Below are positions 6,801 through 50,910 of a stretch of 64,000 nucleotides of DNA, one piece after another. This DNA is from Obrimoposthia wandeli (lineage: Eukaryota): assembly GCA_977020255.1 (NCBI GenBank), contig CDROCS010003227.1, positions 62,001 through 126,000 of the forward strand. The letters run 5' to 3'. The notes under the pieces are model-generated. The model saw nothing but the letters and a program-made list of their open reading frames with translations. It made no database searches and had not been told where the DNA came from. The translations under genes and the position numbers were made by a program. Numbering within the stretch: the first letter of the stretch is position 1; each line of letters starts with the position of its first letter.

Positions 6801-9800
6801 AAGGAATTCGGTGTACTGGCTCATGAAACTCGATTTTATACATATTATATAAATAGAGATAAGGCATATGTCGTTTTTTTCAATAGAGATGAAAGTAATA
6901 AAATGGTATATTGCTGTAATATTCCAGGTTTATTTTATAAATTTGGAATAAAATCTGATGTTAAAAAATATTGGTGACTTTTTATTGATGGTAGTAAATC
7001 AGGTTTAAAACCTGTTCTACTATAAATCAAACAAATATCCAGCTACACCAATAGTTGATTCAAGAAAGCTAAAATAATATTACAATGCATTTAAGTTAAT
7101 ATTTGAAAAAATTCAATATATTGAATTTCTATGGGATGCTGGAGAAGATTTTAAAGTAATAGCTATTCTCACTGAAATGCAACAAGGTTACATTAAATAT
7201 TGTTGTTCCATGTGTCTTTGGGACAGTAGATGCAGAATAGGTAATTATTAAAAGACTCATTGGCAAACTAGAATTAATCAAATTTCAGGACAAGACATTT
7301 TTTTAAATGTATCACTTGTTCCAATTCAAAATATTATCCTGCCACCTTTACATATTAAATTAGGTTTATTTTAAAACTTTGTAAAAGCTTTAAATCCCAG
7401 TTGAGAACCAGCCAAAATTCTAAGAGGCACATTTCCTTAACTTTCAGAAGCTTAGATAAAAGAGGGAATATTTGTTGTACCAGATACTAGAAAATTGATG
7501 AAAAATGAAGATTTAAAAAAACAATAAATAATGTTGAATACGGAGCCTGGATAAGTTTATTAAACACTATTGGAAATTTCTTGGGAACAAATCGTTCACC
7601 TAATTACAAAGATATTGTTGCAGAAATGTTAGAAGCATTTAAATGTATGGGAGTGAAAATGTCACTAAAGATTAATTGTCTCAGTAGTCATATTGATTTT
7701 CTTCCGGAAGATTTAGGAAAGGTAAGTGATGAACATGGTGAATGCTTTCATCAAACTATTAATACTATAAAAAATCGTTACCAAGGTAGAGCTAATTAAA
7801 GAATGATGTCAGATTTCTGTTGGCTTTTACAAATCCAAGTGTTTTTAAATATTATTTATTATTTGTGTAATAAAAAAATTATTTTTTTCTCTTGATTTTG
7901 AATACAGTTAATTAATTAAATATCAAAATTTAATTATCCCGTTAAATTTAGAACATAGATAAATTTAGAACATAGATAAATTTAGAACATAGATAAATTT
8001 AGAACATAGATAAATTTAGAACATAGATAAATATGAATACCAGATTCGTATTCAGTGCGAAACATGCTATAAGATATACATATTAAGATGCTGGATTAAA
8101 TTTCATTTCCGTGCAGTGTAACCAGATATTCTGCGATTCGACACAGTTGGTGTTGTGATTTTTTGTTTGGTTGGCGTCGTGTAAAAGTTTGGTATTTAGT
8201 GTGATGGTACAGTGAAGAATGTATTTTTTTAAAACTTCCAATGGCTTTTAGTAGACATAATCAGATTCTTAATCAACATTTCAGAAAGCAAAGGATGCGT
8301 CGAGTTAAAACTACTGCCCGTAAATTCGTGAAAATTTTAGGTTTACCAACAAATATATTTGTCAATATCGTAAAATAACGAGAGAAAAAATTACATGCAC
8401 ACACTGCTCGTTTAATACATACACACGTGCTTGTATGTACAACCAATGATATAACAAAGCTATGATATATCGATCTGATAATAAACATCATTTAGCGACT
8501 TCATTTTTTTCTCATGTCAATTTAAATGTCTGCATTTTAAACGTCAAAAGAAATTTTCCGATTCTACGCCTGACGCTGCCAGAAATGGTCGATTTTCTTT
8601 AATTGCAGACGAGTCAAAGCACCATATTCAATCAATTGTCGACAAATACCTCGTGTAACCCTAACTCAAGTGTGCCAAGCAATCGATACCAAATACCAAC
8701 TGACAATAACAATATTAAAAGAACATTTACGTCTAACAAAAGTTTGTTCGGTGTAGTTATTGTATTCGGAACAAACTTTATCGAATTTCTTTGTTATGAA
8801 TCTTTTGGTGAGTTGCTTCATGAATTCAGTACTTCTCAATAGCTAAAACGACCAGTAATAATTGATAAGACATGGACTGCATTTGTACCGAGAATTTGCA
8901 AACATTTAGGAGCAGAAATGAATTCTTTTCACTGATCCTTCGAAATTCCCTCCCCACTCATTTCGTTCCGAAGATACACGTTCTCTTAATCTGGGTAGGG
9001 ACGTTTTTGAGGGGTGGATCTCGAAGGATCATTGAACATAGCTCATTTTCCATTCCTAAATATATATAAATCACATTTGGCTAATATTAAGACAATGTTT
9101 GTGATTTAGTTTCTTTTGAATGTGTTTATGTATTTTTATAATATCTTCAGTAGGGGGACCTGTCTCGTATCTCCTTGACGGTTTATTTGAAATTTTTTAG
9201 CACTGTTATTTTTCGTAAGTAAACATATTTAAAAATATTTTCTAGACCAAATATATATTTTACTACACCTCTGTTAAGTTTGAATGTGAGCTTAATGTGG
9301 ATGTTTGGCGGAAAATATGTCATTATTTTATTGATGCGGCTTAACCGCATTTGTGACTCAGAGGCTAAATAGAAGTTATTCAAAGGATACGAGATTTGAC
9401 AAATATTGAATAAACTCACGTATTATTTGAGCTCTTGAACATAAATAATTTTACAGCAACTCCAAGATTCAAGTCTGTGTAAGTGATTTTATCATCTGCA
9501 TCCCTTTTGACCTTGATACTTTTCTTTGGCTTACCGGCTCCTTTACTGTTTTCTGGTTTGATTTCTAATCCATCGAGTTTCTTGAATCGAAGCGGCATTT
9601 TAGCAAGCTTAGAAAGAAATTCCATGCTGTCGATCATGTTACGTTTGTCGTCATACAAGTCCAGACTGCACTGCAATGTAAATAATTTGCGGTTATAATC
9701 TATCTAGCGATTTACTACTTAATTTAGTAAGTAACATATCTGTAAAAATTATTATTTACATCTTTGAGATAGGTGAAGGTTGAGCCAATGACACCAACTG

Positions 9801-17517: not shown

Positions 17518-18474
17518 CTGGTTATAACACCGATGCAGCATGATAATTGCAGAATTGCAGACCAATTGATTAAATAAAACAGTAAACGAAGCTATTTTCA
17601 AAATATAAAATCAGCTAGGTAAGTGTAAATTAATTCAATTTATTTATTGGCAAATCGATTTCAAAACATTTAGTTGATATTAAATTGTTATCACATATCT
17701 GGGAATTTTTATTTCCAATTTGAACATACTCTTACTTTTTAAATGATAATATAAATAATTATGGTTAAGCAGTTGAATAAAATTCTGTAACTTTTAGTTA
17801 TAAAATATTTTAAATACAAAAATCAGCTAAAATAATTTAAAAAGCGAATGAAATGCTCAAAAGAAATATTAAAGTTCAAAATAAAATTATTGATTGATTG
17901 GTCTTATTATAAATTAAGAATTTGGAAAATGATCTCTTTTAAAAATCTTCAAAAGAAACTAAACCTTACCAAAGCAGCAGCTTCTCATTGTACTTTTGTT
18001 AAATTAGAAGAGCTCAGTGAAGAAATAAATTTTGCAAGAGACCTTCAACTTAAGTAGTTCACCATTATTTATCGGTAGCCAAGAAACTGAATATGGTCTT
18101 GTGACGTGACGGTTACGCTCTAATGCAAGTGAAGGTTCTTGAGAGTACTGAGCTGTTAGCTGCACAAAATCTTGTCTGTTCTGTCTGTCAGTCTTAATTA
18201 AAACGTATTTTCTCAAGTTACGTACTACTAATGTTGAGATTACAATATCAAAATGTAAGTACTTCAACAATATCGTTTATTAATAAAATTACACAAAGCA
18301 CATATATTTTGATAAAACATAATAACGTAAACTACAATAATAACCCGGGCAACAATTTAGAGAGTCCATAAACATATATTGAGGATGAAGACGATGATCT
18401 AAACTAAGTTGACTATGCTAAACAGACTACAATATCATGAGTAGGTAGAAGGATGGAGTCTAGACCACTTGACC

Positions 18475-18609
18475 CCCCCCTAAAGGGTGTCACACCATAA
18501 GGATGTCTTGCCACACCATAAGGATATATGTTGCCTCACCTCTGGTAAGGCAACATATACCCTTATGGTGTGGCAAGACACCCTTATGGTGTGACACCCT
18601 TTAGGGGGG
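18475..18609. repeat. Subterminal hairpin (~66-bp stem) followed by a G-tract cluster; mirrored at 30825-30940
   Basis: cccccctaaagggtgtcacaccataagg...ttgcct pairs with aggcaa...ccttatggtgtgacaccctttagggggg with about 3 mismatches; G6-G6-G5-G4-G3-G5 runs at 18604-18642. Confidence 0.9.
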
Positions 18610-18639
18610 AGGGGGGAGGGGGAGGGGAGAGGGTGAGGG

Positions 18640-19015
18640 GGTCAAGTGATCTAGTCTCCACCCTTCTTTTGGCTAACCACTAAAGGGTTGTGGTCGTCCA
18701 TAATTCAAAGGGTCAAGTGGTCTAGTCTCCACCCTTCTTTTTGTGGTCTAGTCTCCACCCTTCTTTTTGGCTAACCACTATGATCGTCCATTATTCAAAG
18801 GGTCAAGTGGTCTAGTCTCCACCCTTCTTTTTGTGGTCTAGTCTCCACCCTTCTTTTTGGCTAACCACTATGATCGTCCATAATTCAAAGGGTCAAGTGG
18901 TCTAGTCTCCACCCTTCTTTTTGTGATCTAGTCTCCACCCTTCTTTTTTGTGGTCTAGTCTCCACCCTTCTTTGATATACCACTATGGTCGTCCATAAAT
19001 CAAAGGGTCAAGGTC
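18640..19015. repeat. Subterminal modular tandem repeats (GTGGTCTAGTCTCCACCCTTCTTTT modules); inverted counterpart ~30355-30795
   Basis: Repeated ~25-bp and ~90-bp modules; copy number and order differ between the arms. Confidence 0.9.
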
Positions 19016-20819
19016 AGTTTTGACTTGAAACTTTGAAGGTATAATTAAGATCATGTGAAAGTTCACACTTAAAAGTTAAGGAATGTATTACGTAATAATA
19101 CACACACTATTCTATGTGAAAATCAAGGCTAAAGTTCACTCTTATCAGTTAAGGAATGTGGTTTTTAACACACAAACTATTCTATGTGAAAGTTTAGATC
19201 AAAATTTTTTTCCTAGGCTTATACATTTATAGAATTATGATAAAATTTCTTTAAATAACTTAAATTATATATTAAAATAAAAAAAAATAAGAAAGAAGTC
19301 AGAGAATAATACAAAATTAAACATATTTAATATGTAATTTCATAATATCATCTTCAAACTTAAGTGAATAGCATTTGTAAAGTAAGAAAATCCATTCTTT
19401 ATACATTCTTTCCGATTTAACAACTAAGTTACAACGGAATTAATAGAAAAAATAAAAAAGTAAATAAAACAACAACACTAAGTTTAACGCTATGAATGAA
19501 AATTAGTAAAATATTAATTTATTTGAATATTTGAATGAAAGTTTGAAAAAAAAATGAGAGTTAGATTGAATGTAAATGAATACAAGTATGAATGCAAATG
19601 AATGCAAATACAAGTAAGTTTCTTAGTAAGTGAATGTAATTTAAAAATAAGAGTGTCGATAGTTTGATTGAATGCGAGTGTAATTTAGACTATAAGTAAA
19701 TTAAAATAGAGTTTTCGTATGAATAAAGTTATGTTAAGTTACAGTAAATTAATAACAAGTAAGCAACTATAAGAAGCAGTGATATTGAAGTATGTTAAAA
19801 ATTAGAATGACTAAGTTATGGCTAGATTAATAGAAAACAACACCAAGTTTGAAGGTATGAATGAAAATTAGTAAAATATTAATGTATTTAAATGTATTTG
19901 AATGATAGTTTGAATAAATTACAGTTAGATTGAATGTAAATGAATGCAAGTATGAATGCAGGGTCAAGTACAAGTAAGAAAGAATACGCAATATGCAAGT
20001 ACGAATGTCAATTATGAATGAAAATTAGTAAATATATTAATGAATTTGAATGTTAGTTTAAATATATGAGAGTTAGAATGAATGTAAGTGAATGCAAGTA
20101 TGAATGTAAGTGAATGCAAATATGAATGCAAATACAAGTAAGAATCTTTACAAGTGAATCTTAAACTGCAAGTGAGTACTAGCTAATTATTAAATTAATA
20201 CTATCAATCAATGAAGATGATGTAAGTTATGATGAAGTTATAATAATTAAGATGCGAACTTTCATATTTTCACATAGTTTACCTCCATATTAAAGTTAAC
20301 CTTTCATACATACTCATGCAATTAAATAATTAAAATGTCTTATCTCGTTTGTTAAAATTCCTTAATTGAAATATTTTAAATAATTAGATAAATTTAAATT
20401 CTTTATTTTTAAATAACTTGATTATAAATTTATATTCGTAAATATAATTTAAATTATCAATATTCATTTCTCTTTTTAACTATTCGAAAATATATTTATA
20501 TACAAATTTAGTGAATTAACTCAACAAACAATTTTATTTTTTTTTAATTACTTGATATTTTTGCCATTGTCTTATTAATATAATATGAATATTCAATTTA
20601 TTTCTTCAAAAATTCATTTTTATATGTTAAATAATATTTCTTTATCACATTATTGTGGTTTTTATCAAGTGATTTTAACCTTAAACTATAAAAAATATTT
20701 TAATTATAAAGTTAGTAGCTGTATTCCGTCGACTGCATATAATATAAATTTCAAATATAAAGTACTATTAAATGTATTCTTTCAAATGGTAAAAGTTCTT
20801 TCGAATTATTTAATTTTGT

Positions 20820-23690
20820 TTACATTCGAAAATTGACTTGTAAATATAATATTATAATTTTGCATATATTCACTTTAATATGTTGTAAGTTATTACTTTA
20901 ATATAATTTTCAACAAAAACTTCAAGTAGTTTACTTATTAAACATAAGTTTAATGTTTTGTACAATAAATTGACTTGTAAACAATATTTATTTTGGTATA
21001 TTTTTTAATATGTTGTAAGTTATTACTTTAATATAATTTACAACAAAAACTTCAAGTAATTTACTTGTAAACTACAATATTTATTTGTTGTTGTATATAT
21101 TCAGTTTAAAATGTTGTAAGTTAATACTTTAATATAATTTACAACCAAATCTTCAAGTAATTTACTTATTAATCATAATTTTAATGATTTGATCAATAAA
21201 TTGACTTGTAAACATAATATAATTTGCATATTTTCAATTTAACACGTTGTAAGTTATTACTATAATATTACATTACATAAAAACGTAATTGATAGTTTAC
21301 TATCGTTTACAATAAATTGACTTGTAAACATAATATATTTATGCATATATTCACTTTAATATGTTGTAAGTTATTACTTTATTATAATTTTCAACAAAAA
21401 CTTCAAGTAGTTTACTTATTAAACATAAGTTTAATGTTTTGTACAATAAATTGACTTGTAAACATAATTTATTTTGGTATATTTTCAATTTAATATGTTG
21501 TAAGTTATTACTTTAATATAATTTACAACAAAAACTTCAAGTAATTTACTTGTAAACTACAATATTTATTTGTTGTTGTATATATTCAGTTTAAAATGTT
21601 GTAAGTTAATACTTTAATATAATTTACAACCAAATCTTCAAGTAATTTACTTATTAATCATAATTTTAATGATTTGATCAATAAATTGACTTGTAAACAT
21701 AATATAATTTGCATATTTTCAATTTAACACGTTGTATTAATATTCTATAATATTAAATTACATAAAAACGTAATTGATAGTTTACTATCGTTTACAATAA
21801 ATTGACTTGTAAACATAATATATTTATGCATATATTCACTTTAATATGTTGTAAGTTATTACTTTAATATAATTTACAACAAAAACTTCAAGTAATTTAC
21901 TTGTAAACTACAATATTTATTTGTTGTTGTATATATTCAGTTTAAAATGTTGTAAGTTAATACTTTAATATAATTTACAACCAAATCTTCAAGTAATTTA
22001 CTTATTAATCATAATTTTAATGATTTGATCAATAAATTGACTTGTAAACATAATATAATTTGCATATTTTCAATTTAACACGTTGTAAGTTAATACTGTA
22101 ATATATCATTACATAAAAAGTAATTCATAGTTTACTGTCGTAAATTGACTTGTAAACATAATATATTTATGCATATATTCACTTTAAAATGTTGTAAGTT
22201 ATTACTTTAATATAATTTTCAACAAAAACTTCAAGTAGTTTACTTATTAAACATAAGTTTAATGTTTTGTAGAATAAATTGACTTGTAAACATAATTTAT
22301 TTTGGTATATTTTCAATTTAATATGTTGTAAGTTATTACTTTAATATAATTTACAACAAAAACTTCAAGTAATTTATTTGTAAACTACAATATTTATTTG
22401 TTGTTGTATATATTCAGTTTAAAATGTTGTAAGTTATTACTTTAATATAATTTACAACCAAAACTTCAAGTAATTTACTTATTAATCATAATTTTAATGA
22501 TTTGATCAATAAATTGACTTGTAAACATAATATAATTTGCATATTTTCAATTGAATATATTGTAAGTTATTACTATAATATTACATTACATAAAAAGTAA
22601 TTGATAGTTTACTATCGTTTACAATAAATTAACTTGTAAACATAATATATTTATGCATATATTCACTTTAATATGTTGTAAGTTATCACTTTAATATAAT
22701 TTTCAACAAAAACTTCAAGTAGTTTACTTATTAAACATAAGTTTAATGTTTTGTACAATAAATTGACTAGTAAACATAATTTATTTTGGTATATTTTCAA
22801 TTTAATATGTTGTAAGTTATTACTTTAATATAATTTACAACAAAAACTTCAAGTAATTTACTTGTAAACTACAATTTTATTTAAAAAATTAGTACAAAAA
22901 CTTCAAGTAGTTTACTTATTAAACATAAGTTTAATGTTTTGTACAATAAATTGACTTGTAAACATAATTTATTTTGGTATATTTTCAATTTGATATATTG
23001 TAAGTTATTACTATAATATTACATTACATAAAAAGTAATTGATAGTTTACTATCGTTTACAATAAATTAACTTGTAAACATAATATATTTATGCATATAT
23101 TCACTTTAATATGTTGTAAGTTATTACTTTAATATAATTTTCAACAAAAACTTCAAGTAGTTTACTTATTAAACATAAGTTTAATGTTTTGTACAATAAA
23201 TTGACTTGTAAACATAATATAATTTGCATATTTTCAATTTAATATATTGTAAGTTATTACTATAATATTACATTACATAAAAAGTAATTGATAGTTTACT
23301 ATCGTTTACAATAAATTAACTTGTAAACATAATATATTTATGCATATATTCACTTTAATATGTTGTAAGTTATTACTTTAATATAATTTTCAACAAAAAC
23401 TTCAAGTAGTTTACTTATTAAACATAAGTTTAATGTTTTGTACAATAAATTGACTTGTAAACATAATATATTTATGCATATATTCACTTTAATATGTTGT
23501 AAGTTATTACTTTAATATAATTTTCAACAAAAACTTCAAGTAGTTTACTTATTAAACATAAGTTTAATGTTTTGTACAATAAATTGACTAGTAAACATAA
23601 TTTATTTTGGTATATTTTCAATTTAATATGTTGTAAGTTATTACTGTAATATTTCATTACATAAAAAGTAATTCATAGTTTATTAATATT
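20820..23690 (+). repeat. AT-rich satellite, left arm (variant monomers of ~100-135 bp)
   Basis: Recurrent TTGACTTGTAAACATAAT / AATATGTTGTAAGTTATTACTTTAATATAATTT / CAAAAACTTCAAGTA; one period of 134 bp measured between 21317 and 21451. Confidence 0.9.
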
Positions 23691-24019
23691 ATGATTATTA
23701 AGTAAACTATTCGAAATGTTGTAAAAATCAAGAAATAAGTTAAAAAATATTCATAGTTGATCAACTCATAACTGAAATTTACATTAGTTTAGTATTGTAT
23801 TATATCAATCATATACCTATACGTTTAAATAAAGTTACTTTTTAAAAAAAAAACCATTGATTTTAAGTATTTCATGTTAAACATTGGTTTTAAAGAAGAA
23901 TTTAGCATTGCAATATCATAAATTAGATTTAATTTAACTATTTTTTATTTATTATTTGATAATTAACTTTTATATCGCTTTTAATTATTGAAATATCTAC
24001 AAATTTTGTACAAGTACAC

Positions 24020-27000
24020 AAGTTCGAATAACTTACAACATATTAAAGTGAATATATGCAAAATTATATTATGTTTACAAGTCAATTTTCGAATGTCTAG
24101 TATACAAAATTAAATAACTCGAAAAAACATTTACTATTTGAAATAATAAACTTAATAGTACTTTATATTTGAAATTTATATTATATGCAGTCGGTGAGGT
24201 ACAGCTACTAACTTTATAATTAAAATATTTTTATAGTTTAAGGTTAAAATCACTTGATAAAATACCACAATAACGTATGTTTACAAATAAATTTATTGTA
24301 AACGATAGTAAACTATCAATGACTTTTTATGTAATGAAATATTAGAGTATTAACTTACAATATATTAAACTGAATATATGTATAAATATATTATTTTTAC
24401 AAGATCTTTTATTATACAAAACATTAAAATTATGATTAATAAGTAAACTACTTGAAGTTTTTGTTGTAAATTATAATAAAGTAATAACTTACAACTTATT
24501 AAAGTGAATATATGAATAAATATATTATGTTTACAAGTAAATTTATAGTAAACGATAGTAAATATCAATTAATTTTATGGTATGGAATATTAAAGTAATA
24601 ACTTACAACATATTAAATTATGTTTACAAGTCAATTTATGATACAAAACATTAAACTTATGATTAATAAGTAAACTACTTGAAGTTTTTGTTGAAAATTA
24701 TATTAAAGTAATAAGTTACAACATATTAAAGTTAATATATGCATAAATATATTATGTTTACAAGTCAATTTATAGTAAACGACAGTAAAATATCAATTAC
24801 TTTTTATGTAATGGAATATTACAGTAATAATTTACAACGTATTATATGAATATGCACAATAAATTATGTTTACAAGTTAATTTATTGATCAAATCATTAA
24901 AATTATGATTATTAAGTAAAGTACTTGAAGTTGTTTGTTGTAAATTATATTACAGTAATAACTTACAACATATTAAATTGAAAATATACAAAAAATATAC
25001 TATGTTTACAAGTTAATGTATTGTACAAAACATTAATATTATGATTATTAAGTAAACTACATGAAGTTTTTGTAGTAAATTATATTACAGTAATAACTTA
25101 CAACATTTTAAACTGTATATATGCAACAACAAATAAATATTGTAGTTTACAAGTAAATTACTTGAAGTTTTTGTTGTAAATTATATTAAAGTAATAACTT
25201 ACAATATATTAAATTGAAAATATACCAAAATAAATTATGTTTACAAGTCAATTTATTGATCAAATCATTAAACTTATGATTAATAAGTAAACTACTTGAA
25301 GTTTTTGTTGAAAATTATATTAAAGTAATAAGTTACAACATATTAAAGTGAATATATGCATAAATATATTATGTTTACAAGTTAATTTATTGTAAACGAT
25401 AGTAAACTATCAATTACTTTTTATGTAATGTAATATTATAGTAATAACTTACAATATATTAAATTGAAAATATACCAAAATAAATTATGTTTACAAGTCA
25501 ATTTATTGTACAAAACATTAAACTTATATTTAATAAGTAAACTACTTGAAGTTTTTGTACTAATTTTTTAAATAAAATTGTAGTTTACAAGTAAATTACT
25601 TGAAGTTTTTGTTGTAAATTATATTAAAGTAATAACTTACAACATATTAAATTGAAAATATACCAAAATAAATTATGTTTACTAGTCAATTTATTGTACA
25701 AAACATTAAACTTATGTTTAATAAGTAAACTACTTGAAGTTTTTGTTGAAAATTATATTAAAGTGATAACTTACAACATATTAAAGTGAATATATGCATA
25801 AATATATTATGTTTACAAGTTAATTTATTGTAAACGATAGTAAACTATCAATTACTTTTTATGTAATGTAATATTATAGTAATAACCTACAATATATTCA
25901 ATTGAAAATATGCAAATTATATTATGTTTACAAGTCAATTTATTGATCAAATCATTAAAATTATGATTAATAAGTAAATTACTTGAAGTTTTGGTTGTAA
26001 ATTATATTAAAGTAATAACTTACAACATTTTAAACTGAATATATACAACAACAAATAAATATTGTAGTTTACAAGTAAATTACTTGAAGTTTTTGTTGTA
26101 AATTATATTAAAGTAATAACTTACAACATATTAAATTGAAAATATACCAAAATAAATTATGTTTACAAGTCAATTTATTGTACAAAACATTAAACTTATG
26201 TTTAATAAGTAAACTACTTGAAGTTTTTGTTGAAAATTATATTAAAGTAATAACTTACAACATATTAAAGTGAATATATGCATAAATATATTATGTTTAC
26301 AAGTTAATTTATTGTAAACGATAGTAAACTATCAATTACTTTTTATGTAATGTAATATTATAGTAATAACTTACAATATATCAAATTGCAAATATACCAA
26401 AATAAATTATGTTTACAAGTCAATTTATTGTACAAAACATTAAACTTATGTTTAATAAGTAAACTACTTGAAGTTTTTGTACTAATTTTTTAAATAAAAT
26501 TGTAGTTTACAAGTAAATTACTTGAAGTTTTTGTTGTAAATTATATTAAAGTAATAACTTACAACATATTAAATTGAAAATATACCAAAATAAATTATGT
26601 TTACTAGTCAATTTATTGTACAAAACATTAAACTTATGTTTAATAAGTAAACTACTTGAAGTTTTTGTTGAAAATTATATTAAAGTAATAACTTACAACA
26701 TATTAAAGTGAATATATGCATAAATATATTATGTTTACAAGTTAATTTATTGTAAACGATAGTAAACTATCAATTACTTTTTATGTAATGTAATATTATA
26801 GTAATAACTTACAATATATTCAATTGAAAATATGCAAATTATATTATGTTTACAAGTCAATTTTCGAATGTCTAGTATACAAAATTAAATAACTCGAAAA
26901 AACATTTACTATTTGAAATAATAAACTTAATAGTACTTTATATTTGAAATTTATATTATATGCAGTCGGTGAGGTACAGCTACTAACTTTATAATTAAAA

Positions 27001-28520
27001 TATTTTTATAGTTTAAGGTTAAAATCACTTGATAAAATACCACAATAACGTATGTTTACAAATAAATTTATTGTAAACGATAGTAAACTATCAATGACTT
27101 TTTATGTAATGAAATATTAGAGTATTAACTTACAATATATTAAACTGAATATATGTATAAATATATTATTTTTACAAGATCTTTTATTATACAAAACATT
27201 AAAATTATGATTAATAAGTAAACTACTTGAAGTTTTTGTTGTAAATTATAATAAAGTAATAACTTACAACGTATTAAAGTGAATATATGAATAAATATAT
27301 TATGTTTACAAGTAAATTTATAGTAAACGATAGTAAATATCAATTAATTTTATGGTATGGAATATTAAAGTAATAACTTACAACATATTAAATTATGTTT
27401 ACAAGTCAATTTATGATACAAAACATTAAACTTATGATTAATAAGTAAACTACTTGATGTTTTTGTTGAAAATTATATTAAAGTAATAAGTTACAACATA
27501 TTAAAGTTAATATATGCATAAATATATTATGTTTACAAGTCAATTTATAGTAAACGACAGTAAAATATCAATTACTTTTTATGTAATGGAATATTACAGT
27601 AATAATTTACAACGTATTATATGAATATGCACAATAAATTATGTTTACAAGTTAATTTATTGATCAAATCATTAAAATTATGATTATTAAGTAAAGTACT
27701 TGAAGTTGTTTGTTGTAAATTATATTACAGTAATAACTTACAACATATTAAATTGAAAATATACAAAAAATATACTATGTTTACAAGTTAATGTATTGTA
27801 CAAAACATTAATATTATGATTATTAAGTAAACTACATGAAGTTTTTGTAGTAAATTATATTACAGTAATAACTTACAACATTTTAAACTGTATATATGCA
27901 ACAACAAATAAATATTGTAGTTTACAAGTAAATTACTTGAAGTTTTTGTTGTAAATTATATTAAAGTAATAACTTACAATATATTAAATTGAAAATATAC
28001 CAAAATAAATTATGTTTACAAGTCAATTTATTGATCAAATCATTAAACTTATGATTAATAAGTAAACTACTTGAAATTTTTGTTGAAAATTATATTAAAG
28101 TAATAAGTTACAACATATTAAAGTTAATATATGCATAAATATATTATGTTTACAAGTCAATTTATAGTAAACGACAGTAAAATATCAATTACTTTTTATG
28201 TAATGGAATATTACAGTAATAATTTACAACGTATTAAACTAAATATATGCAAAATAAATTATGTTTACAAGTCAATTTATTGTAAACGACAGTAAACTAT
28301 GAATTACTTTTCATGTAATGAAATATTACAGTATTAACTTACAATATATTAAATGAATATGTACAATAAATTATGTTTACAAGTCAATTTATCGTACAAA
28401 TCATTAATATTAAGATTATTAAGTAAATTACTTGAAGTTTAGGTTGTAAATTATATTAAAGTAATAACTTACAACATATTAAAGTGAATATATGCAAAAT
28501 TATAATATTATATTTACAAG
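24020..28520 (-). repeat. Same satellite in reverse orientation (right arm), including a ~1.3-kb duplicated block
   Basis: Reverse-complement monomers; 24054-25380 recurs at 26829-28155 (offset 2775). Confidence 0.9.
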
Positions 28521-31500
28521 TCAATTTTCGAATGTAAACAAAATTAAATAATTCGAAAGAACTTTTACCATTTGAAAGAATACATTTAATAGTACTTTAT
28601 ATTTGAAATTTATATTATATGCAGTCGACGGAATACAGCTACTAACTTTATAATTAAAATATTTTTTATAGTTTAAGGTTAAAATCACTTGATAAAAACC
28701 ACAATAATGTGATAAAGAAATATTATTTAACATATAAAAATGAATTTTTGAAGAAATAAATTGAATATTCATATTATATTAATAAGACAATGGCAAAAAT
28801 ATCAAGTAATTAAAAAAAATAAAATTGTTTGTTGAGTTAATTTACTAAATTTGTATATAAATATATTTTCGAATAGTTAAAAAGAGAAATGAATATTGAT
28901 AATTTCAATTATATTTACGAATATAAATTTATAATCAAGTTATTTAAAAATAAAGAATTTAAATTTATCTAATTATTTAAAATATTTCAATTAAGGAATT
29001 TTAACAAACGAGATAAGACATTTTAATTATTTAATTGCATGAGTATGTATGAAAGGTTAACTTTAATATGGAGGTAAACTATGTGAAAATATGAAAGTTC
29101 GCATCTTAATTATTATAACTTCATCATAACTTACATCATCTTCATTGATTGATAGTATTAATTTAATAATTAGCTAGTACTCACTTGCAGTTTAAGATTC
29201 ACTTGTAAAGATTCTTACTTGTATTTGCATTCATATTTGCATTCACTTACATTCATACTTGCATTCACTTACATTCATTCTAACTCTCATATATTTAAAC
29301 TAACATTCAAATTCATTAATATATTTACTAATTTTCATTCATAATTGACATTCGTACTTGCATATTGCGTATTCTTTCTTACTTGTACTTGACCCTGCAT
29401 TCATACTTGCATTCATTTACATTCAATCTAACTGTAATTTATTCAAACTATCATTCAAATACATTTAAATACATTAATATTTTACTAATTTTCATTCATA
29501 CCTTCAAACTTGGTGTTGTTTTCTATTAATCTAGCCATAACTTAGTCATTCTAATTTTTAACATACTTCAATATCACTGCTTCTTATAGTTGCTTACTTG
29601 TTATTAATTTACTGTAACTTAACATAACTTTATTCATACGAAAACTCTATTTTAATTTACTTATAGTCTAAATTACACTCGCATTCAATCAAACTATCGA
29701 CACTCTTATTTTTAAATTACATTCACTTACTAAGAAACTTACTTGTATTTGCATTCATTTGCATTCATACTTGTATTCATTTACATTCAATCTAACTCTC
29801 ATTTTTTTTTTCAAACTTTCATTCAAATATTCAAATAAATTAATATTTTACTAATTTTCATTCATAGCGTTAAACTTAGTGTTGTTGTTTTATTTACTTT
29901 TTTATTTTTTCTATTAATTCCGTTGTAACTTAGTTGTTAAATCGGAAAGAATGTATAAAGAATGGATTTTCTTACTTTACAAATGCTATTCACTTAAGTT
30001 TGAAGATGATATTATGAAATTACATATTAAATATGTTTAATTTTGTATTATTCTCTGACTTCTTTCTTATTTTATTTTTTTTTATTTTTATATATAATTT
30101 AAGTTATTTAAAGAAATTTTATCATAATTCTATAAATGTATAAGCCTAGGAAAAAAATTTTGATCTAAACTTTCACATAGAATAGTGTGTGTGTTTAAAA
30201 ACCACATTCCTTAACTGATAAGAGTGAACTTTAGCCTTGATTTTCACATAGAATAGTGTGTGTATTATTACGTAATACATTCCTTAACTTTTAAGTGTGA
30301 ACTTTCACATGATCTTAATTATACCTTCAAAGTTTCAAGTCAAAACTGACCTTGACCCTTTGATTTATGGACGACCATAGTGGTATATCAAAGAAGGGTG
30401 GAGACTAGACCACAAAAAAAAAGGGTGGAGACTAGACCACTTGACCCTTTGAATTATGGACGATCATAGTGGTTAGCCAAAAAGAAGGGTGGAGACTAGA
30501 CCACAAAAAGAAGGGTGGAGACTAGATCACAAAAAGAAGGGTGGAGACTAGACCACTTGACCCTTTGAATTATGGACGACCACAACCCTTTAGTGGTTAG
30601 CCAAAAGAAGGGTGGAGACTAGATCACTTGACCCTTTGAATAATGGACGATCATAGTGGTTAGCCAAAAAGAAGGGTGGAGACTAGACCACAAAAAGAAG
30701 GGTGGAGACTAGACCACTTGACCCTTTGAATTATGGACGACCACAACCCTTTAGTGGTTAGCCAAAAGAAGGGTGGAGACTAGATCACTTGACCCCCTCA
30801 CCCTCTCCCCTCCCCCTCCCCCCTCCCCCCTAAAGGGTGTCACACCATAAGGGTATATATTGCCTTACCAGAGGTGAGGCAACATATATCCTTATGGTGT
30901 GGCAAGACATCCTTATGGTGTGACACCCTTTAGGGGGGGGTCAAGTGGTCTAGACTCCATCCTTCTACCTACTATCATGATCCCTTTACCTGTCGTTTTC
31001 AGATAGGACCATTCCTGTTAAGTTTAGAATTTTCTCATGACTATTTTACATTCAAACCTAGGTCTTTATAATTTTAATGTTTCTATATATATACTCCTCC
31101 AAAGGTTTTTTCTAAAAAAATTAATTTTGAATATAATTATTTTTTCTAAATTAGAAAACTAATACGTAATATCACGGCTATGTTATTTATGAACATTTTC
31201 ATTTATATATTTAAAAAACTATTGTTTTTTTTAATAATATTTTAATATAATTATAATACATTGAACATTTTTAAATTCCAATATTTTTTTCTAAACTGTA
31301 AGTATTTCTAATTATTATGAATATAATATATTTATTTCTATATTACAGGAATTTTTTAATGATAAATGAAACCAATTCATATTTACGGGAGTTAAGAAGA
31401 GAATTAAGAGATTACGAAATGATAAGAAGACATTTATAGAAATAATGGATATACCATACAACAGGTGTGTCAATTTAAATTATTACAAACCTAAACTTAA

Positions 31501-32849
31501 AAAGAAAATGACCGGCCCTAAGAAAATGATAGATACACCGAAAAGTCTCGCTATCAAGAGGAGTGTAAGCAAAATGATAGCTAATTGTGAAATAGTTAAA
31601 TAGTTATATGAATAAGAAGTTATGTTTTGAAACAAGTCACAAGGAGTGTGATTCGAGTATGAAGGCCTACTTTAGATAGAAATTCTATCGCGGAATATTC
31701 TTCATATGTCCAGTATCGGAGGAGATCGATTGGTCGAAGTTTGTTGATAAGTATTGACACCATCTTCGGCATTTCCAGCAACGTGGGAAGAATGCCATCT
31801 TCCAGGTGACGCTACATAGCAGTATGTCATATATTGCCCTAGTGCCTGCTTCTCCTGCTGTCATCATATCAACTATGCCTGCCCCATTTCTACAGTTGCT
31901 TCTCCTGCATCTGCCGCTGTAACCATATCTGCTGCCCCCTCTACTGCGCCTCATGATTGAGCTCCTGCCACCACCATTATGCCCGCTGCTATGCTCGTTG
32001 CTGTTCCTATTGCTGTTCCACCAACATCGAGTGTTGGTTCAAATGGAGTTGGTAGGGTTCCCACTAGCGCGCTGATACCAGCATCTACCCGCAAGAGAAG
32101 TGTTATGCTCACTTCAGGTAGCTATGCTGCGAAGTTGCCCAGGGTTGATATCGTTAAGCGAAAGCGTGGTATTCGAGGCATGATTGAGACATCGTCATTA
32201 GATGTTTCTAATGACAAAGTAATTGATTTAGTAGTTCCGAAGTCACTTTTGACTACCTTAGGGGTTGCAGTCATCAAGTTCACGACTTGCAAGGTTCAAT
32301 TGAATTTGCTAATTTTGTTGGGGTTTCTATATGAAACTACTGGATAGATCCTCGGATGGAGGCCCCCAACGTGAGTTCTATAGAAGTAGGGCTTGCAGTT
32401 GTTTGTGGCCTACTTAGATTGTGCTTACCTATCTCATTGTATAATCTGAAGGTTTGTTTTTGTTTGTTGTTGTGGGGATGTATGAAGAGCTGTGTATATC
32501 GTACTGGAAAAATTCCCTTAGTGTGGTGCAGTGTATGGAGTAGTTGGTACTAGTTTGATTCCAAAAGCTTTGTTCAAACAACACTGAATAACTGTAGGAA
32601 ACTTTATTCTCTAAAACACACTAAGTTACGTTTCTAAAAAATGACAACAACTAGTCCTAATTCTCTTCACAAACTTTGCACAAATGGGGATGTTGGAATG
32701 TATCGATCTTAATCGGCTTAATAATTTTAGAGGTCCTGATTCGGTACGCGTTAAATTCTATTTTATAATTTAAAATTCAATGTTGATTAATTTTAAATTC
32801 AATACACGTTAATGTCTTTTTATTTCAAACTTATTATAAAATTCAATAT

Positions 32850-33330
32850 AGACTAATTTGAAATTCAATTTTCGTTAATTTCTCTTTACTTCAAACTTTA
32901 ATTCAGAATTCAAAATAGGTTAATTTCAATTCAATACTAGTTAATTTTTTTTACTTCGAACTTTAATCCAGAATTCAATATAGGTTAATTTCAATTCAAT
33001 ACTGGTTAATTCTTTTTACTTCGAACTTTAATTCAGAATTCAATATAGGTTAATTTCAATTCAATACTTATTAATTCTTTGTACTTCGAACTTTAATTCA
33101 GAATTCAATATATGTTAATTTCAATTCAATACTGGTTAATTCATTTTACTTCAAAAATTAATTCAAAATTCAATATAGACTAATTTCAACTCACCAATAA
33201 TTCAATTCGGTCTTGGCTGCTCAGATTCCTGTAATTCAATATACTTAAATTCTTTTTTCTAATTTAAACTTAATTTAAAATCCAATGTTGATTAATTTTA
33301 AATTCAATATTCGTTAATTTTTTTTACTTC
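32850..33330 (+). repeat. ~62-bp tandem repeat (TTCAATTCAATACTGGTTAATTCTTTTTACTTCGAACTTTAATTCAGAATTCAATATAGGTTAAT)
   Basis: About 5-7 diverged copies read directly. Confidence 0.8.
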
Positions 33331-34905
33331 AAACTTACCAAATATTTCGACTCGGTCTTGGCTGCTCAGATACCTGTAGTCTCAGGTCCGGGGTCTCTGA
33401 TCCGGTTTCTCATATCCGTTCCGGTTTGGTTGTTGATGGTATCTGCTCTCTTGAATTATCCAATTTTTGGCCTCTTCTCGTTCGCTAGTGTTATAATTTT
33501 CTTTTAACGGTATATGCTCTCTGTATAATAATTAAAATAACTTTCTCTTTTTATAGTTCTTACCTTGGATTATCTCAGCTTTTGGTCTCTTCTCGTTTAT
33601 TAGTGTTATACTTTTCTTTAAACGGTATCTGCTCTCTGTGTTTATATATTTCTGAAAATCAAAGTAATTCCTTTTTATAGCTGCAATATCTCTGTCATAT
33701 TTCTCAATTAGTGCTTTCCTTCTTATAGCTGCGAATTCCCGACTTCTGAAATGGGAAAATATTCAATTAATTATCACTTAGGTTAAGTGATTCTTACCTT
33801 CACTCGTCCCGGCAGCAATTGATTCCCACACTCTAATGTATTTTGAGTCTGAGAGCGGACAACAACTGGTCTGTTTCTCAGCGGCTGGCCTTCTTGTTCT
33901 TCTGTCTATGGCTTCTTATTCTCTTTTTCTTAATCCGTCTTATTTTCTTGGCTTTTCGAAATTAATTGGGATTTTCTTACACTGGCCCTTTTAATAGATT
34001 TAATATTTACATATACTATACATCAAACACTTGACCTCCTCAAGGTCCTAAAATACTTTTTTGATTTTATTATATTAATTTTAATTCCATTCAAATTTTA
34101 TTTTATTTTTAACCTTGCTTTCAAGGATTTATTTTACTATATAATAATTAATTATTTTTTGAAAATTATTAAATTTCTAATCCAAACAATTTGCTAATAT
34201 AGGAGAGACACGTGCCTGGATATTTTTCAATATATCTTAAGTGGGAAATTGGTATGTGAAAAATGACTCCAGTAATAATATATTCAATTCAAAATTGTTA
34301 ATATATATTTTCCAGTAATTATTGTCTCTGAAATTGGTAATATATATTTTCCAGTAATTATTGTCTCTGAAATATTATGTGCTGACGATGTTGGGATTCG
34401 TCTTTTAACTATTCTATTTATAGACCTGCATCAACAAACTCCACCATCAGATCTGCAACCTGATTTCCAACAAATTATCGGAAAATTGTCACCATTGCAA
34501 GTCTGCGTGCCATTTAGCATCGGTAAGAGGAGAAAACTGGCAATCAGGAAAATCTGCACAAAAAATATTAAACACATCCACACACAGAGGAGTTAAAATA
34601 TACTGGGAACACATACACACAGTATAGAGTGGGTAAGTAATAGGTGAGTAAGGGAGTGAGTAGAGATTGAGTAGTATGAGCAATGAAGATGAAAGAAGAG
34701 TGAAAAAATATGTTTGCTGTGTGTGTGTGTGGTGACTTTATTTTTGTATGTATGTGTTTTGTGCATGTGTGCACATTAATCTTCCCATCTCTGACTTCGC
34801 GGGCAATCGCCTACCGCGAAGTCAGAGACAAGTCTGCCATCTTTACCATCACCATTGTTATCTCTGGCTTCGCGGAATCCACCGCAAAGTCAGAGATAAC
34901 AAGCC

Positions 34906-34957
34906 ATCTCCCTGAAGAGCCCGGAAGGGCGAAACGGGCTTTTTTCCCGTCGGAGAT
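34906..34957 (+). ncRNA. Type I hammerhead ribozyme
   Basis: Stem I ATCTCC/GGAGAT; core CTGAAGA; stem II GCCC-GGAA-GGGC; GAAA; stem III CGGG/CCCG; GTC triplet with predicted cleavage after 34951. Confidence 0.9.
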
Positions 34958-35262
34958 TGATCACTCCAAAACCAAAATGCCAAAGTGCATAATATTTTAT
35001 TTAACAAGAACTTTTCCCTAATTAAGGAAAGTTCTTAATTAATTAATTCCCATTTTTTCTTTATTTTCATATCTTTTATTTTTTCAATAAATCTTAATGC
35101 TTAAAATATTTAAAAGATATTCCCAACATATAGGGCTCCAGGAAGTAGTTATATACCAACCCCATCCTAGTTAGCGCTCTCACATTGCGTTATCAATGTT
35201 CTGAATTTCAACACTTTTTGTTTTCTTTACAGCATATTAGCTGTACGTTTCCGCGAAGTATT

Positions 35263-36168
35263 TGATGGAGTGATCAAGTTCACAACCTCGCAGCGAACCG
35301 CTCGGCCCCTTACTCTCACACTCGCCTCATAATTCTCTCGAGTTTTTAAGCGGCCGAGATTTCAGCACACGCCGTACGGCAAGGAGTCACCTCCCTCTAG
35401 GCCCAGGAGGACACCTAGTTCTATCCCCGAAAAGCAGATGAGTCACCACATTCGGCCTTGGTAATAACGCTACGATCGACGGATCTATACTTCAATAATG
35501 GCTGTTACACCCACTATCCAGTTCCGGCTTTCAGTGTTAGAGCGCTAGATCGTGGCGGCTCCTTCTTCGCCTCGCTTCTACCGTGTCTCTTCCAACGTCC
35601 TTGCGGACGACGGCATTCGAATCCAGTGGCTCTTTCGTGTAAACGGACCATCGAGCTCGTTCCGGCAAACACTTTTTCTGTAGCGATTTTGATCTCTGCT
35701 AACGATATCCCTAGCTGTCTGAGAATATCAAAACTCTGTTCTTGCCAGTTCCCTCGCCACGATATCGTAATCGCTTGGGTAACGAAGCTCAATGTTGGAT
35801 CCAAGAAAGTGCTGCTGCTTGTCTAATTTCTGCCAATGTGGTTGTCTCGTCTCCAGCAGCTGGGATATGTTCATTATCTCCACTGGTCACTTCAGGAGTG
35901 TTTGTAGTGGGAATTAATCCGATATCATCAGCCACCTTCGTTTCCACGACGGTGTCAAGGTCGACCAAGCCTTCTCGCTCGCGTCAGTACCTAAGGCTCC
36001 GGTTTCCTCCCCTGGGGTCGCTACACTGGTGTATTCAGAGGGACTCACGTCTTCGCCATTCGGTACTAACTGTTCTTCATCCGCATTACCTCCGCTAACG
36101 ATGCCGCCGTTAGTTTCATTGGCCTTTTCGAGAGTGATCAAACCATCTTTCGCTTTCATCTTCAAACC
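35263..36168 (-). mobile_element. ~0.9-kb GC-rich insertion in relic B (retroelement ORF1/gag-like fragment, unassigned)
   Basis: Sits between gaagtattt and cgcactaatcc, which are contiguous in the intact pPolB (~49366-49384). Carries broken minus-strand ORFs 35914-36165 and 35514-35804. Confidence 0.55.
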
Positions 36169-37119
36169 CTCGCACTAATCCTCAATGGGTTTATCAATAT
36201 GATACCTTGTTCAATCAATAAACTTTAGATAAACCCATATGCCGATACGTCTATGTAATATACCGCAATTTGAGAGAAACAACCCATATCTCTCAATCAA
36301 CGTATTTACATTCAATAGGTTTTCTAATGTGCAAACGGATAGGGATATCTTTAAAAATCCCTATGTGGATGTAATTTATAGGATCACAAACCCGAACACT
36401 ACGCAAATCAATCTTCTCCTTTTAATAAATGATGATAACTTTCATTATGACGCTATTCCAAAACTCAATGGGATATGTAATTATAGGAACATATGTGTAT
36501 CTAATGACATCCGGTGTACTTGGTGCCATAAGCGTCTCCATGGGTTCCGGAGACCGATAAGTTACGCCAAGTACGTTCCACTCTGTAGGATGAATTTGGA
36601 TCATTAAACACTTTTATTATCATTAACACCACAGAGAAGCATATTGAGTTTAAGGACTTTTTAAAAAATTCTCCGCCGTTTGCTGTTTACGTGTATTTTT
36701 AGGCTCAGCTAGAGCCACAGGGAATTAATCATAAGATCCAGCTTTCAATCTCGACCGGTATGCTTATGCCTCTTGTTGTAGCCATGACAGGATACACACA
36801 TAATTACTCGGTTTTCACAGGAGGATCTTGTGTGGCATTCTTTTTGCAGAAATTAGAGGACATGGTGAAAGAGGTAGTACTCCCATGGTACAGAAATCAT
36901 GCGATCGAGGTAATACTGCCACTTACACTGGAACAGGTATCGAGTTTCAATGCTGCGAGAATCTGCTACTTGTGTAAGAAGAAGCTAGTGAATAAAGTTT
37001 ACTAGCATGATCACATGATGGGAGAGTACCTCGGAACTGATCATTCGAAATGCAACTTATCAAGGAGAGTGAATCGCTCTTTTCCTATCATTTTTCACAA
37101 TTTGATGGGTTATGACATG

Positions 37120-37717
37120 AGTAGGTAGATGTGTGACTTCTGGAACAAAGCCCCCCCCTGAGGACAAAATTTTTTAAGGTCAAGTTGAGGTCACGGTGAG
37201 GTCATGACCTCATGAGGTCAAGTCAAGTTAAGGTCAAGTTAAGGTCAATGTACTTTAAGGTCAACTTAAGGTCATGACGTCATGAGGTCAAGTTAAGGTC
37301 AAGTTAAGGTCATGATGAGGACAATGTACTTTAAGGTCAAGTTAAGGTCATGATGAGGACAATGTACTTTAAGGTCAACTTAAGGTCATGAGGACAACTT
37401 AAGGTCACGGTGAGGTCAAAAATATTCTATTTTTAGTAACATTCTTTAAATCTATATATCTTTTTATCTAAAGACTGTATTAACACCAATTCAACAAAAT
37501 ACATCTAGTGTGTGTGTGTGTTTTATAATTTAAATTAAATTATCTACTTATAAAATAAAGTATTATATAATTTGATAAATTTATTTAAACTAAATTAAAT
37601 TAAACTAAATTAAACTATCTACTTATAAAATAAAGTATTATATAATTTGATAATCATGTTTAAACGTTCCTATATCTATCTAACAAAGACAGTCACGTAC
37701 TGCATCTATATTGCAAA
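37120..37717 (+). repeat. Left TIR (598 bp) with an AGGTCA-based subterminal array
   Basis: Inverted match to 52798-53535. Confidence 0.95.
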
Positions 37718-37757
37718 TACTTGCATCTTTATGTAATCAATAGTAACATTTATTCTT

Positions 37758-37794
<37 letters not shown>

Positions 37795-37835
37795 AGTGTC
37801 TAACAAAGACACTCTGCATCTATATTGCAATGTAA

Positions 37836-38261
37836 TTACAAAGTTTTTGGTTGGTTTGCTAAAAAGTTTAGTTTTGGACCAAGATAGGCACTAGGATCCT
37901 TTTCAAATGCTTTTGTAAGTTTATCTAATTTTACAAAAATATCAAGCATACCATCCCCTTTTTGTATACCATCCCTTTTTTGCACTCGTTTCTGATTTTG
38001 TATACCTTTCAAATAATCCACATTCTTTTTGTGCTTTATAGCTTTTTTATCAACTCCACCAAACCATCTACCTAAAAGATTTGCTGCCATCATATGAATA
38101 CCCAAACCCTCCATGATTTTCTTTTTACTCATAGTCTTTTTACTCATAGTCTTTTTAACCTTAGTCTTTAATGATTTAGTAGGTTTTTTAGTCATTTTCA
38201 TAATAAATATTAAAGTATCACTATTGTTTATATATATATAAAATAATACAAATAAAGACAC
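37836..38261 (-). CDS. Lys-rich basic protein, possible virion core precursor
   Basis: KKTMSKK repeats, a WFGG motif and QKGDG/EGLG glycine motifs reminiscent of adenain cleavage sites. Confidence 0.55.
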   Translation of the reverse strand: MSLFVLFYIYINNSDTLIFIMKMTKKPTKSLKTKVKKTMSKKTMSKKKIMEGLGIHMMAANLLGRWFGGVDKKAIKHKKNVDYLKGIQNQKRVQKRDGIQKGDGMLDIFVKLDKLTKAFEKDPSAYLGPKLNFLANQPKTL

Positions 38262-38270
38262 AAAAATTTA

Positions 38271-38660
38271 TTAGTCAACTCTAACAGCATCAATTATTTT
38301 CCATATCGGAGTTTCCAATCCACTGGGCCCGATCTTGCATCCTTGAATTCTGATTGAGAGAATCCATTCTAGCTTAGGAGGAGGTGCTTCGTATATTGTT
38401 CCATTCTCATGCTTGAAAGTGGCAGTTGATCCTTTGATTACGAATTTGTTTTCCTGAAGCGCATAGTTGATTCCGAATTGAGTCAAGAGAATATTGATTC
38501 TCTCTTTATCCACAGAAGTCAAATTTGATATTTCAAAATCAAATTTAAGCGGCTCGATGTTGACAGGAAAAATAAAATTATAGTTATGAGCTTTCTTCAA
38601 AAAGTGCATCTCATATCCATAATATGTATGCATAGGTTGATATAGCTTTTCGAAATTCAT
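38271..38660 (-). CDS. Hypothetical Polinton protein (129 aa)
   Basis: Clean ATG-initiated ORF with protein-like composition in a gene-dense element. Confidence 0.6.
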   Translation of the reverse strand: MNFEKLYQPMHTYYGYEMHFLKKAHNYNFIFPVNIEPLKFDFEISNLTSVDKERINILLTQFGINYALQENKFVIKGSTATFKHENGTIYEAPPPKLEWILSIRIQGCKIGPSGLETPIWKIIDAVRVD

Positions 38661-38773
38661 ATTGACAATTATAAATTGAAATATTCAATTGTTTATCCTC
38701 CAAAGCTCGATTCTAATTGGTCGATATTCTTGTTTATGAAAATCGATTAGTCTCAATTGGTTAACATTCTTGT

Positions 38774-38998
38774 TTATCGTCTAGTATTAGTCATATCCTT
38801 AAAGGGCTCACGTTCTTCGGTTACGCGCGTAGGATACTGTGGTATTGTTTGACTTGATGGATTAATATTTTCTCTCTGATTATTTCTATTATAATTCATA
38901 TTAGAATATAAATTACTACCAGAACCTATATATGTACTAGCTCTACTTTCATTATTTTGATTATTTTGATTATCCATTTTCAATAAAATCATTATCAA
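38774..38998 (-). CDS. Short Asn/Gln-rich hypothetical ORF
   Basis: ORF track only; low complexity. Confidence 0.3.
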   Translation of the reverse strand: MIMILLKMDNQNNQNNESRASTYIGSGSNLYSNMNYNRNNQRENINPSSQTIPQYPTRVTEEREPFKDMTNTRR

Positions 38999-39129
38999 AA
39001 TATTGTTTATACTAAGACAAAGACATCACATGTCATTACTTGCGAAAAGTTGCAAATAGTTGTAATGTGGTCTAAAAATATATTTTCACTTACTATATAA
39101 GCTAGACAATTTCATCATTCAATTTTGTT

Positions 39130-40131
39130 ATGACTACTAAATTTATTGCACATTATGTTTCAGAAAACGGAGAACTCACCATTAGACGACGGCGTTTTGA
39201 TAATATTTCAAGAATAAATGAAAATATGATATATGAAGAAAGAAGATTAGAATCGTTACAAGCAAAGTTTACTGGTTTAGCCGATAAGAAAGCTTTAGCA
39301 AAAGCAGGATTTTACAAGCACGATGATTCGAAAGATAATGTAAAGTGTATTTACTGTCAGGGAGGAATATCAGGATGGGAGTACTATCTGAAACCAATGA
39401 AACAGCATCAGCTATTTTTCCCAAGATGCCCGTTTGTTTTGAAAATGAATGTTTCAAACGTACCAATAATTGATTCCAGCACCACCCAAATTGATTTTGA
39501 TACAACTCCAATGGATAAAGTAGTTATTGTGCGCAATAATTATTCTAATGATATTGAAATACCTACATTATCGATTTTCGATCATGTATATATTTGGAAT
39601 GATTCTTATCGATGTTGTTTCTGTTGGAAAGCAGTACCCCGACTTGACCTTATTGATACTATGCCCGAAAGAATCTTTCATACTCGAGATTGTAAAGCAT
39701 CTAGTATGGGAATCAAGAACGGATGTATTGTTGAATATCATATTAGTAATGATGAAATTGATGCTCAGATGGAAACTCGTCAAATAGTTTTGCTGAAACG
39801 TGATTACAGTCATGATAGAATCAAAGCCGTTTTAGTTAATAGGTTTAAAACATTCGGTAACAAATATGATTCTATATATGAGTTTATAACGGATTTAAGG
39901 TCTTTAGAAATAAAATCTGAACCAAAACATCGGATAAATTATCTCGAGTACCTCTTACCAAATCCCGAATGTGTTGTTTGCATGAGCGATGCGATTTCCG
40001 TGGCATTTTTACCATGCGGTCACTTAAACACGTGTATTAAATGTTCAGATCGTTTTATTACATGTCCATATTGCAAGACAATTATTATTAGACGAGTAAG
40101 AAATATTAGATTTCATAGCATAGGCAATTAA
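39130..40131 (+). CDS. iap: Inhibitor of apoptosis (BIR + degenerate BIR + RING)
   Basis: BIR: LAKAGFY..DNVKCIYC-x16-H-x6-C with exact spacing. Second BIR-like CCFC..H..C. C-terminal IAP-type RING CVVC-x11-CGH-x3-C-x2-C-x6-CPYC. TACTATATAAGC at 39091. Confidence 0.93.
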   Translation: MTTKFIAHYVSENGELTIRRRRFDNISRINENMIYEERRLESLQAKFTGLADKKALAKAGFYKHDDSKDNVKCIYCQGGISGWEYYLKPMKQHQLFFPRCPFVLKMNVSNVPIIDSSTTQIDFDTTPMDKVVIVRNNYSNDIEIPTLSIFDHVYIWNDSYRCCFCWKAVPRLDLIDTMPERIFHTRDCKASSMGIKNGCIVEYHISNDEIDAQMETRQIVLLKRDYSHDRIKAVLVNRFKTFGNKYDSIYEFITDLRSLEIKSEPKHRINYLEYLLPNPECVVCMSDAISVAFLPCGHLNTCIKCSDRFITCPYCKTIIIRRVRNIRFHSIGN

Positions 40132-40194
40132 GCAAATCTAAAAATAGATGTTCAAATTGTATAAATAGAAGAAATCAGTTTATAATAATCAGAA

Positions 40195-50856: not shown

Positions 50857-50910
<54 letters not shown>

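Follow-up and report, generated by a model that had tools for sequence, protein, structure and literature searches.

A gene-free 12.5-kb palindrome of Obrimoposthia wandeli is very probably a non-autonomous derivative of a Polinton family

Positions 18440-30973 of a 64,000-nucleotide stretch of the Obrimoposthia wandeli genome (GenBank assembly GCA_977020255.1, contig CDROCS010003227.1, positions 62,001 to 126,000 of the forward strand; hereafter the window) hold a long palindrome without genes, and the locus raises the question of which transposon family such an element belongs to and how it is copied. In an initial annotation of the window it was taken to be a non-autonomous, satellite-filled parasite of a Polinton, sharing end features with the autonomous Polinton 6 kb downstream; replication by protein priming and even packaging as a defective or satellite genome were considered possible, and a conserved copy length of 12-16 kb was proposed as a test.

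The element is 12,534 bp long with a GC content of 22% and is bracketed by an exact 6-bp target-site duplication (18434-18439, identical to 30974-30979). Over at least 61 bp, its termini at 18440 and 30973 repeat each other exactly in inverted orientation. The 27-bp left terminus (18440-18466, forward strand), which is the same as the ends of the Polinton family called B below, is a likely integrase and replication-origin signal by prediction, and it is followed by a predicted subterminal hairpin between a C run and a G run (18473-18609; the first 220 nt fold with z = -17 compared to shuffled sequences). The left arm consists of an outer part with GC-rich 26- and 90-bp repeats, derived from the family B terminal repeat (18440-19417, forward), and an AT-rich inner part specific to the gene-free lineage and to polymerase-less hybrids (19418-20808, forward). 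Beyond it lie an AT-rich satellite array with units mostly of ~115 and 134 bp in higher-order mixes (20809-23685, forward), an unpaired central spacer of 325 bp (23702-24026, forward), a right satellite array in inverted orientation (24027-28548, reverse), and a right arm (28549-30973, reverse) that is an inverted copy of 18440-20808, including the hairpin and terminus. Alignment of 18440-20830 with 28527-30973, ~2.4 kb in length, gave 2,336 matches, 7 substitutions (in 2,343 aligned pairs) and 7 indels.

An inverted partner is present inside the element for 97.4% of its bases, and the longest run without one is the spacer already recognized in the initial annotation. The arms and spacer described there were recovered as such, whereas the satellite halves proved to be unequal and inexact mirrors (2.9 kb on the left, 4.5 kb on the right), attaining 97% identity to each other in one 374-bp stretch only. 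The right half contains an internal 1.5-kb duplication (24027-25524 and 26803-28298, 98.2% identical) and two additional copies of the inner-arm end (24085-24275 and 26860-27050). As originally described, the element is gene-free: its longest stop-to-stop frame has 85 codons and 17 Polinton proteins gave no tblastn match to it, so that by tblastn and frame inspection it encodes no pPolB, integrase, packaging ATPase or capsid protein.

Exact matches to the 27-bp end numbered 858 and 875 (1,733 together) in the 1.35-Gb genome, compared to 0 for the reversed control; there were also 0 matches in viral and metagenome contigs, which says little. From the first 100 listed matches 23 end pairs were picked and 21 fetched, and exact 6-bp duplications flank all 21 of these elements. 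Polinton genes are present in 7 of the 21 and absent from the other 14. A 28-mer from the inner arm has 303 exact matches in the genome, which corresponds to at least about 150 loci, and the top 40 scored arm matches, like all 40 scored spacer matches, are 98-100% identical. Arm variation forms a star-like pattern, 272 of the 300 minor variants being confined to one of 39 loci. Genome-wide counts are somewhat inflated by pairs of loci with identical flanks, some of them inverted, which are likely segmental duplications or duplicated haplotypes.

Young sister copies were fetched from 17 loci, and the 12 that remained after 5 with one or both ends outside the stretch taken were dropped include 9 with distinct exact 6-bp duplications. 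The spacer is absent from 5 of these 12 and reduced to a remnant in one more. Uninterrupted homologous sites were found for 4 of 8 sister insertions tested, and because the flank matches at these empty sites overlap by ~6 bp, the duplication was made at insertion. No such site was found for the window insertion in the assembly or among the loose ends listed from four short-read runs of one sample. The gene-free family is young, high in copy number and spread over many independent insertions. A single gene-free copy contains a nested frame of the Tc1/mariner transposase type (internal positions 6799-7776 of the fetched locus), and gene-free copies were also seen inside Polinton genes, namely a one-ended piece in a helper capsid-type gene and a whole copy in an integrase gene.

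The Polinton downstream of the element (37120-53535, forward strand, 16.4 kb, with its own 6-bp duplication) belongs to a family designated A and has Pfam matches to integrase, A32-like ATPase, pPolB, IAP, TBP-like and DSP proteins. The initial annotation had noted that its ends resemble those of the element, and the first 10 bases are indeed the same and a C run is found at positions 32-39 (34-41 in the element). Only 19 of the 27 terminal bases agree, though; the subterminal hairpin is absent in family A, and BLAST of the element against the rest of the window found no other likeness, which together rule this neighbour out. The Polinton end motif is generic, since other families of the genome have related end motifs too.

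The matching partner is instead a second family, B, represented by the seven elements that combine exact 27-bp ends with pPolB, integrase and capsid-type genes. An autonomous Polinton with the same ends, which the initial annotation had proposed to look for, is thereby found, and the end sequence belongs to carriers of pPolB and integrase and not to another transposase family. Most B core proteins are about 55-80% identical to those of family A, and B copies are 11.5-13.0 kb long (n = 10). Nine integrase loci were fetched, and ends were located in seven and not in two. The element's 27-bp end matches seven gene-carrying B copies at 25-27 of 27 bases, the hairpin is predicted in five of the seven B helpers that were folded (z between -6 and -16), and the outer arm aligns with the ends of six gene-carrying B copies at a patchy 72-99% identity that stops at element position 978. 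By sequence comparison, then, the element shares its ends, predicted hairpin and first kilobase with family B. This family is itself abundant: a piece of the B integrase has 150 scored matches, every one of them at 99-100% identity, which indicates at least 150 copies, and a hand count put ~85 of the 150 in open frames of 348 codons.

Six B helpers and family A offer no counterpart to the inner arm, satellite or spacer, and a simple recent deletion within those copies consequently does not account for the element. We hold with high confidence, from the resemblance of its ends and outer arms, that the element is a non-autonomous palindromic derivative of Polinton family B.

This assignment was compared with described transposons using the portions of the cited articles that were available as text, to which statements on the literature here and below refer. 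Polintons/Mavericks are recognized by AGT-type ends, a 6-bp target duplication and long terminal inverted repeats (PMC10748475, PMC8097293), and the element has AGT-type ends, a 6-bp duplication and long inverted repeats. It differs from them in lacking pPolB, integrase and capsid genes, in being 97% self-complementary, and in having arms of 2.4 kb plus inverted satellite compared to cited repeats of 100-1,500 bp. Both surveys detect Polintons through their genes, and gene-free members would therefore be missed; their available texts contain neither 'non-autonomous' nor 'palindrom'. For the anole, an apparent absence of non-autonomous Polinton copies is reported (PMC3014272), and no such element is described in the available text of PMC6431247, PMC8504770, PMC8576890, PMC2836005 or bioRxiv 2025.01.09.631634. 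Literature searches that covered neither the founding Polinton paper (Kapitonov and Jurka 2006), nor Krupovic and Koonin 2015, nor supplementary repeat libraries returned no description of giant palindromic gene-free Polintons. Repbase names non-autonomous Polintons, which are likewise gene-free with Polinton ends and would depend on a helper; none is described as a multi-kilobase palindrome with satellite filler in the literature text covered. The element is a non-autonomous Polinton, a known kind, in a multi-kilobase palindromic satellite-filled form that is apparently undescribed.

The closest cut-and-paste counterpart is Galileo, a P-superfamily element with 7-bp flanks and arms of up to about 1.26 kb, whose non-autonomous copies show extension of the terminal inverted repeats and chimeras (PMC3573991). 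The element likewise has long, internally repetitive inverted arms, arm extension and chimeric non-autonomous copies. It differs in the 6-bp duplication seen in 21 of 21 cases and in ends that belong to carriers of integrase and pPolB; the one Tc1-type open reading frame (ORF) seen is nested in a single copy, and a foldback or Galileo-type identity is ruled out. Ginger2 has a 6-bp AT-rich target and TGT ends (PMC2836005) and is excluded by the AGT with which the element's ends begin.

We next consider how the palindromic arms are kept alike. Among 12 palindromic copies (the sister C146 being additionally excluded from the arm comparison), 10 have arms that are each other's nearest neighbours, all 12 have private variants common to both arms, and in 11 the tree pairs the two arms, three of these with weaker support. 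As a control, the 225-bp inner part of the helper ends grouped by side across copies, with matching arms in 1 of 11. The sole exception is C35, where an inverted 1.6-kb copy of one end, which takes in the polymerase C-terminus, has replaced the other. Sister palindromes have differing turnaround points, and some lack the spacer and are 99-100% self-complementary. Because arm pairs are closest relatives in 10 of 12 gene-free copies compared to 1 of 11 helpers, these alignments show that one arm has been recopied from the other, be it during replication or in place. Another helper copy, C58, is also rearranged and has extra copies of the TBP-like gene and of a terminal ORF.

Exchange between the gene-free lineage and family B is seen in hybrids that run from the inner arm into the TBP-like gene of B. 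Of 40 scored matches, 34 span this junction, so there are at least 34 hybrids. Two hybrids examined whole (C116 and C49; one is 11.6 kb long and the other 10.9 kb) have the order gene-free left arm into the TBP-like gene, then ATPase, integrase and capsid-type genes, with pPolB absent. They are 97.5% alike across 8 kb and are separate insertions with their own 6-bp duplications. A further copy, C44, has family A ends and is likewise a gene-free palindrome, 11.4 kb long with ~4-kb arms and an interior unlike that of the window element. Its two arms pair most closely with each other, and a 601-bp piece of arm has 2,762 first-look candidates in the genome. This family A-ended palindrome with an unrelated interior shows that the gene-free palindrome form arose twice.

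From the shared ends, the duplication length and the hybrids, it is likely that the protein-primed polymerase and the integrase of B act in trans to copy and insert the gene-free family; protein-primed replication of the gene-free elements themselves is plausible. During such replication, a displaced single strand would fold back on its own long inverted repeats, and the polymerase would switch template and fill in one arm from the other. This fill-in would turn one-armed elements into palindromes and allow satellite pairing out of register, with variable lengths and centres as the result, after which B's integrase would insert the molecules so formed. The outcome would be akin to a snap-back defective genome turned into a heritable transposon family. 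Taken as a whole, this scheme of a B-ended palindrome family that is copied in trans, refilled by fold-back and inserted by B integrase appears to us the probable explanation.

The snap-back genomes of adeno-associated virus (AAV), which are transient, encapsidated and retain viral genes or promoters, and for which template switching has been proposed (PMC8235507), are the closest structural analogue in the literature text covered. Like the element, they are self-complementary, are derived from one end of a helper-dependent genome and are symmetric or looped. Unlike them, the element is integrated, inherited and gene-free and has filler of its own. Self-complementarity with helper ends, as in a snap-back or satellite genome, is found, whereas a length fixed at helper size is not, helper size being an upper limit only.

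Several observations weigh against the fold-back scheme. An exact duplication is absent in 3 of the 12 young sisters with both ends. A search of six B helpers, family A and five A-ended copies (six pairs were taken, one of them without one end) for the origin of the inner arm, satellite and spacer gave only a 70-bp edge and two weak 45-55-bp spacer matches. Comparison with 45-52 other arm rows, among them the 28 sister arms with the best scores, showed that 7 of 9 variants found in both arms of the window copy occur nowhere else in this set, and this privacy fits in-place gene conversion after insertion equally well as copying before insertion. Shared and unshared arm variants show a weak, non-significant trend towards clustering (P 0.08-0.11 with events within 15 columns merged); an earlier significant result was dropped, having been driven by multi-base blocks. 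Helper inner ends are not routinely homogenized, so arm copying is no general by-product of Polinton replication, and since the cut-and-paste element Galileo also extends its terminal inverted repeats (PMC3573991), foldback form alone is no proof of protein priming.

Much of this would also be expected if the element had its origin and integrase from Polinton B and the palindrome were made and kept in the chromosome, with excision and reinsertion occurring without pPolB copying and the arms being converted in place within one strand, as happens in other long palindromes. The private variants of the window locus, the weak clustering, the side-specific inner ends of helpers and the Galileo precedent all fit such a history. 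We nevertheless judge it improbable, given that hybrids and rearranged copies form recurrent families flanked by duplications of their own, that at least 150 copies at ~1% divergence require a copying route, and that the non-homologous genes of C35 overwritten by an inverted end need a template switch and not simple conversion.

The size of the window copy, 12.5 kb, falls within the B range, and its nearness to Polinton genome size was correctly noted at the outset. Size alone could be explained if the filler DNA had been selected to match the helper genome so that the elements enter B capsids and spread between cells or hosts. No measured gene-free copy without a nested insert exceeds the B range, the two polymerase-less hybrids measure 10.9 and 11.6 kb, and the neighbour's PY protein, 54% identical to B's, scores 0.98 to double-jelly-roll clusters, with recognition below threshold. 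The lengths of other copies speak otherwise. Gene-free copies span 3.6-12.5 kb. Leaving aside copies with nested inserts, the first sample covers 3.6-9.8 kb and the young sisters 6.6-9.9 kb, the latter set being skewed towards short copies by the size of the stretch fetched; the window copy is among the longest, at the top of a broad range with a ceiling near family B size, and the conserved 12-16 kb length proposed as a test in the initial annotation does not hold. The median inner spacing between arms is 4.6 kb across 28 listed arm pairs compared to 7.9 kb in the window copy, and three of the 28 pairs are spaced by at least 7.5 kb (two pairs spaced >19 kb were set aside). Arm divergence shows no trend with length (Spearman -0.29, P 0.37, 12 copies), so that longer copies are not younger and the idea that copies are born long and shrink with age was rejected. 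No adenovirus-type protease was found by Pfam in 19 window ORFs (17 of family A) or 8 family B ORFs. Selection for packaging at helper size is in our view quite unlikely. Beyond the length ceiling and the weak capsid-fold lead of the PY protein, packaging as a defective or satellite genome received no support here, and it is unnecessary to explain the data.

That the palindrome is an assembly fold-back is hardly credible: short-read contigs of one sample (four runs, possibly the assembly source) cross the left junction by 23 bases, mismatch-free in two runs yet below the 31-base criterion used, and none spans the element, but the left and right flanks differ, the right one being single-copy in the genome, the duplication is exact, the arms differ by substitutions and indels, the centre is asymmetric, and nine sister palindromes have their own duplications. 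The palindromic element is real.

The surroundings of the element reflect a very heavy Polinton load in the whole genome, where a first look gave 32,304 candidates for B integrase and the 27-bp end of family A has 1,148 exact matches. The family A element has inserted into the pPolB gene of a Polinton that is older and decayed (31606-37119 and 53543-53713), and a further decayed Polinton fragment lies at the window start (82-2513). Copies C48 and C182 contain a nested long terminal repeat (LTR) retrotransposon of ~20-24 kb with a single long frame that encodes a zinc knuckle, a chuvirus-like fusion glycoprotein (PF24664, E 6e-93), an aspartyl protease, BIR and RING domains (IAP), a protease, RT (in the C182 copy), RNase H and integrase, followed by two dual-specificity phosphatase domains. 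Its IAP and DSP share 29-32% identity with the corresponding proteins of the window's family A Polinton. Three of eight family B insertions tested lie within copies of this retrotransposon, and a 150-bp segment of the window (32312-32463) matches the end of the large retrotransposon's LTR at 78-81%.

In the literature text covered, Polinton replication and movement have no direct demonstration. At least 150 young multi-kilobase palindromes beside near-identical helpers define candidate cis-acting signals, namely the 27-bp end, the predicted hairpin and the first kilobase, and the gene-free family appears to record template switching three times, in arm recopying, in overwritten helper ends and in polymerase-less hybrids. 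With these young palindromes and the three records, population and long-read data could put the fold-back step of Polinton replication to the test. Palindromic Polinton passengers likely also offer a route by which satellite DNA spreads, and they can be misread as errors of assembly. We put forward only tentatively, as a possibility more doubtful than not, that animal Polintons have a class of their own of giant gene-free snap-back palindromes, with independent origins from different Polinton families, replication on the helper's protein-primed machinery through arm recopying, trading of arms with the helper that yields polymerase-less families with capsid and integrase genes, and a length capped by the helper's capsid; if so, these families would represent a defective-interfering population written into the germ line.

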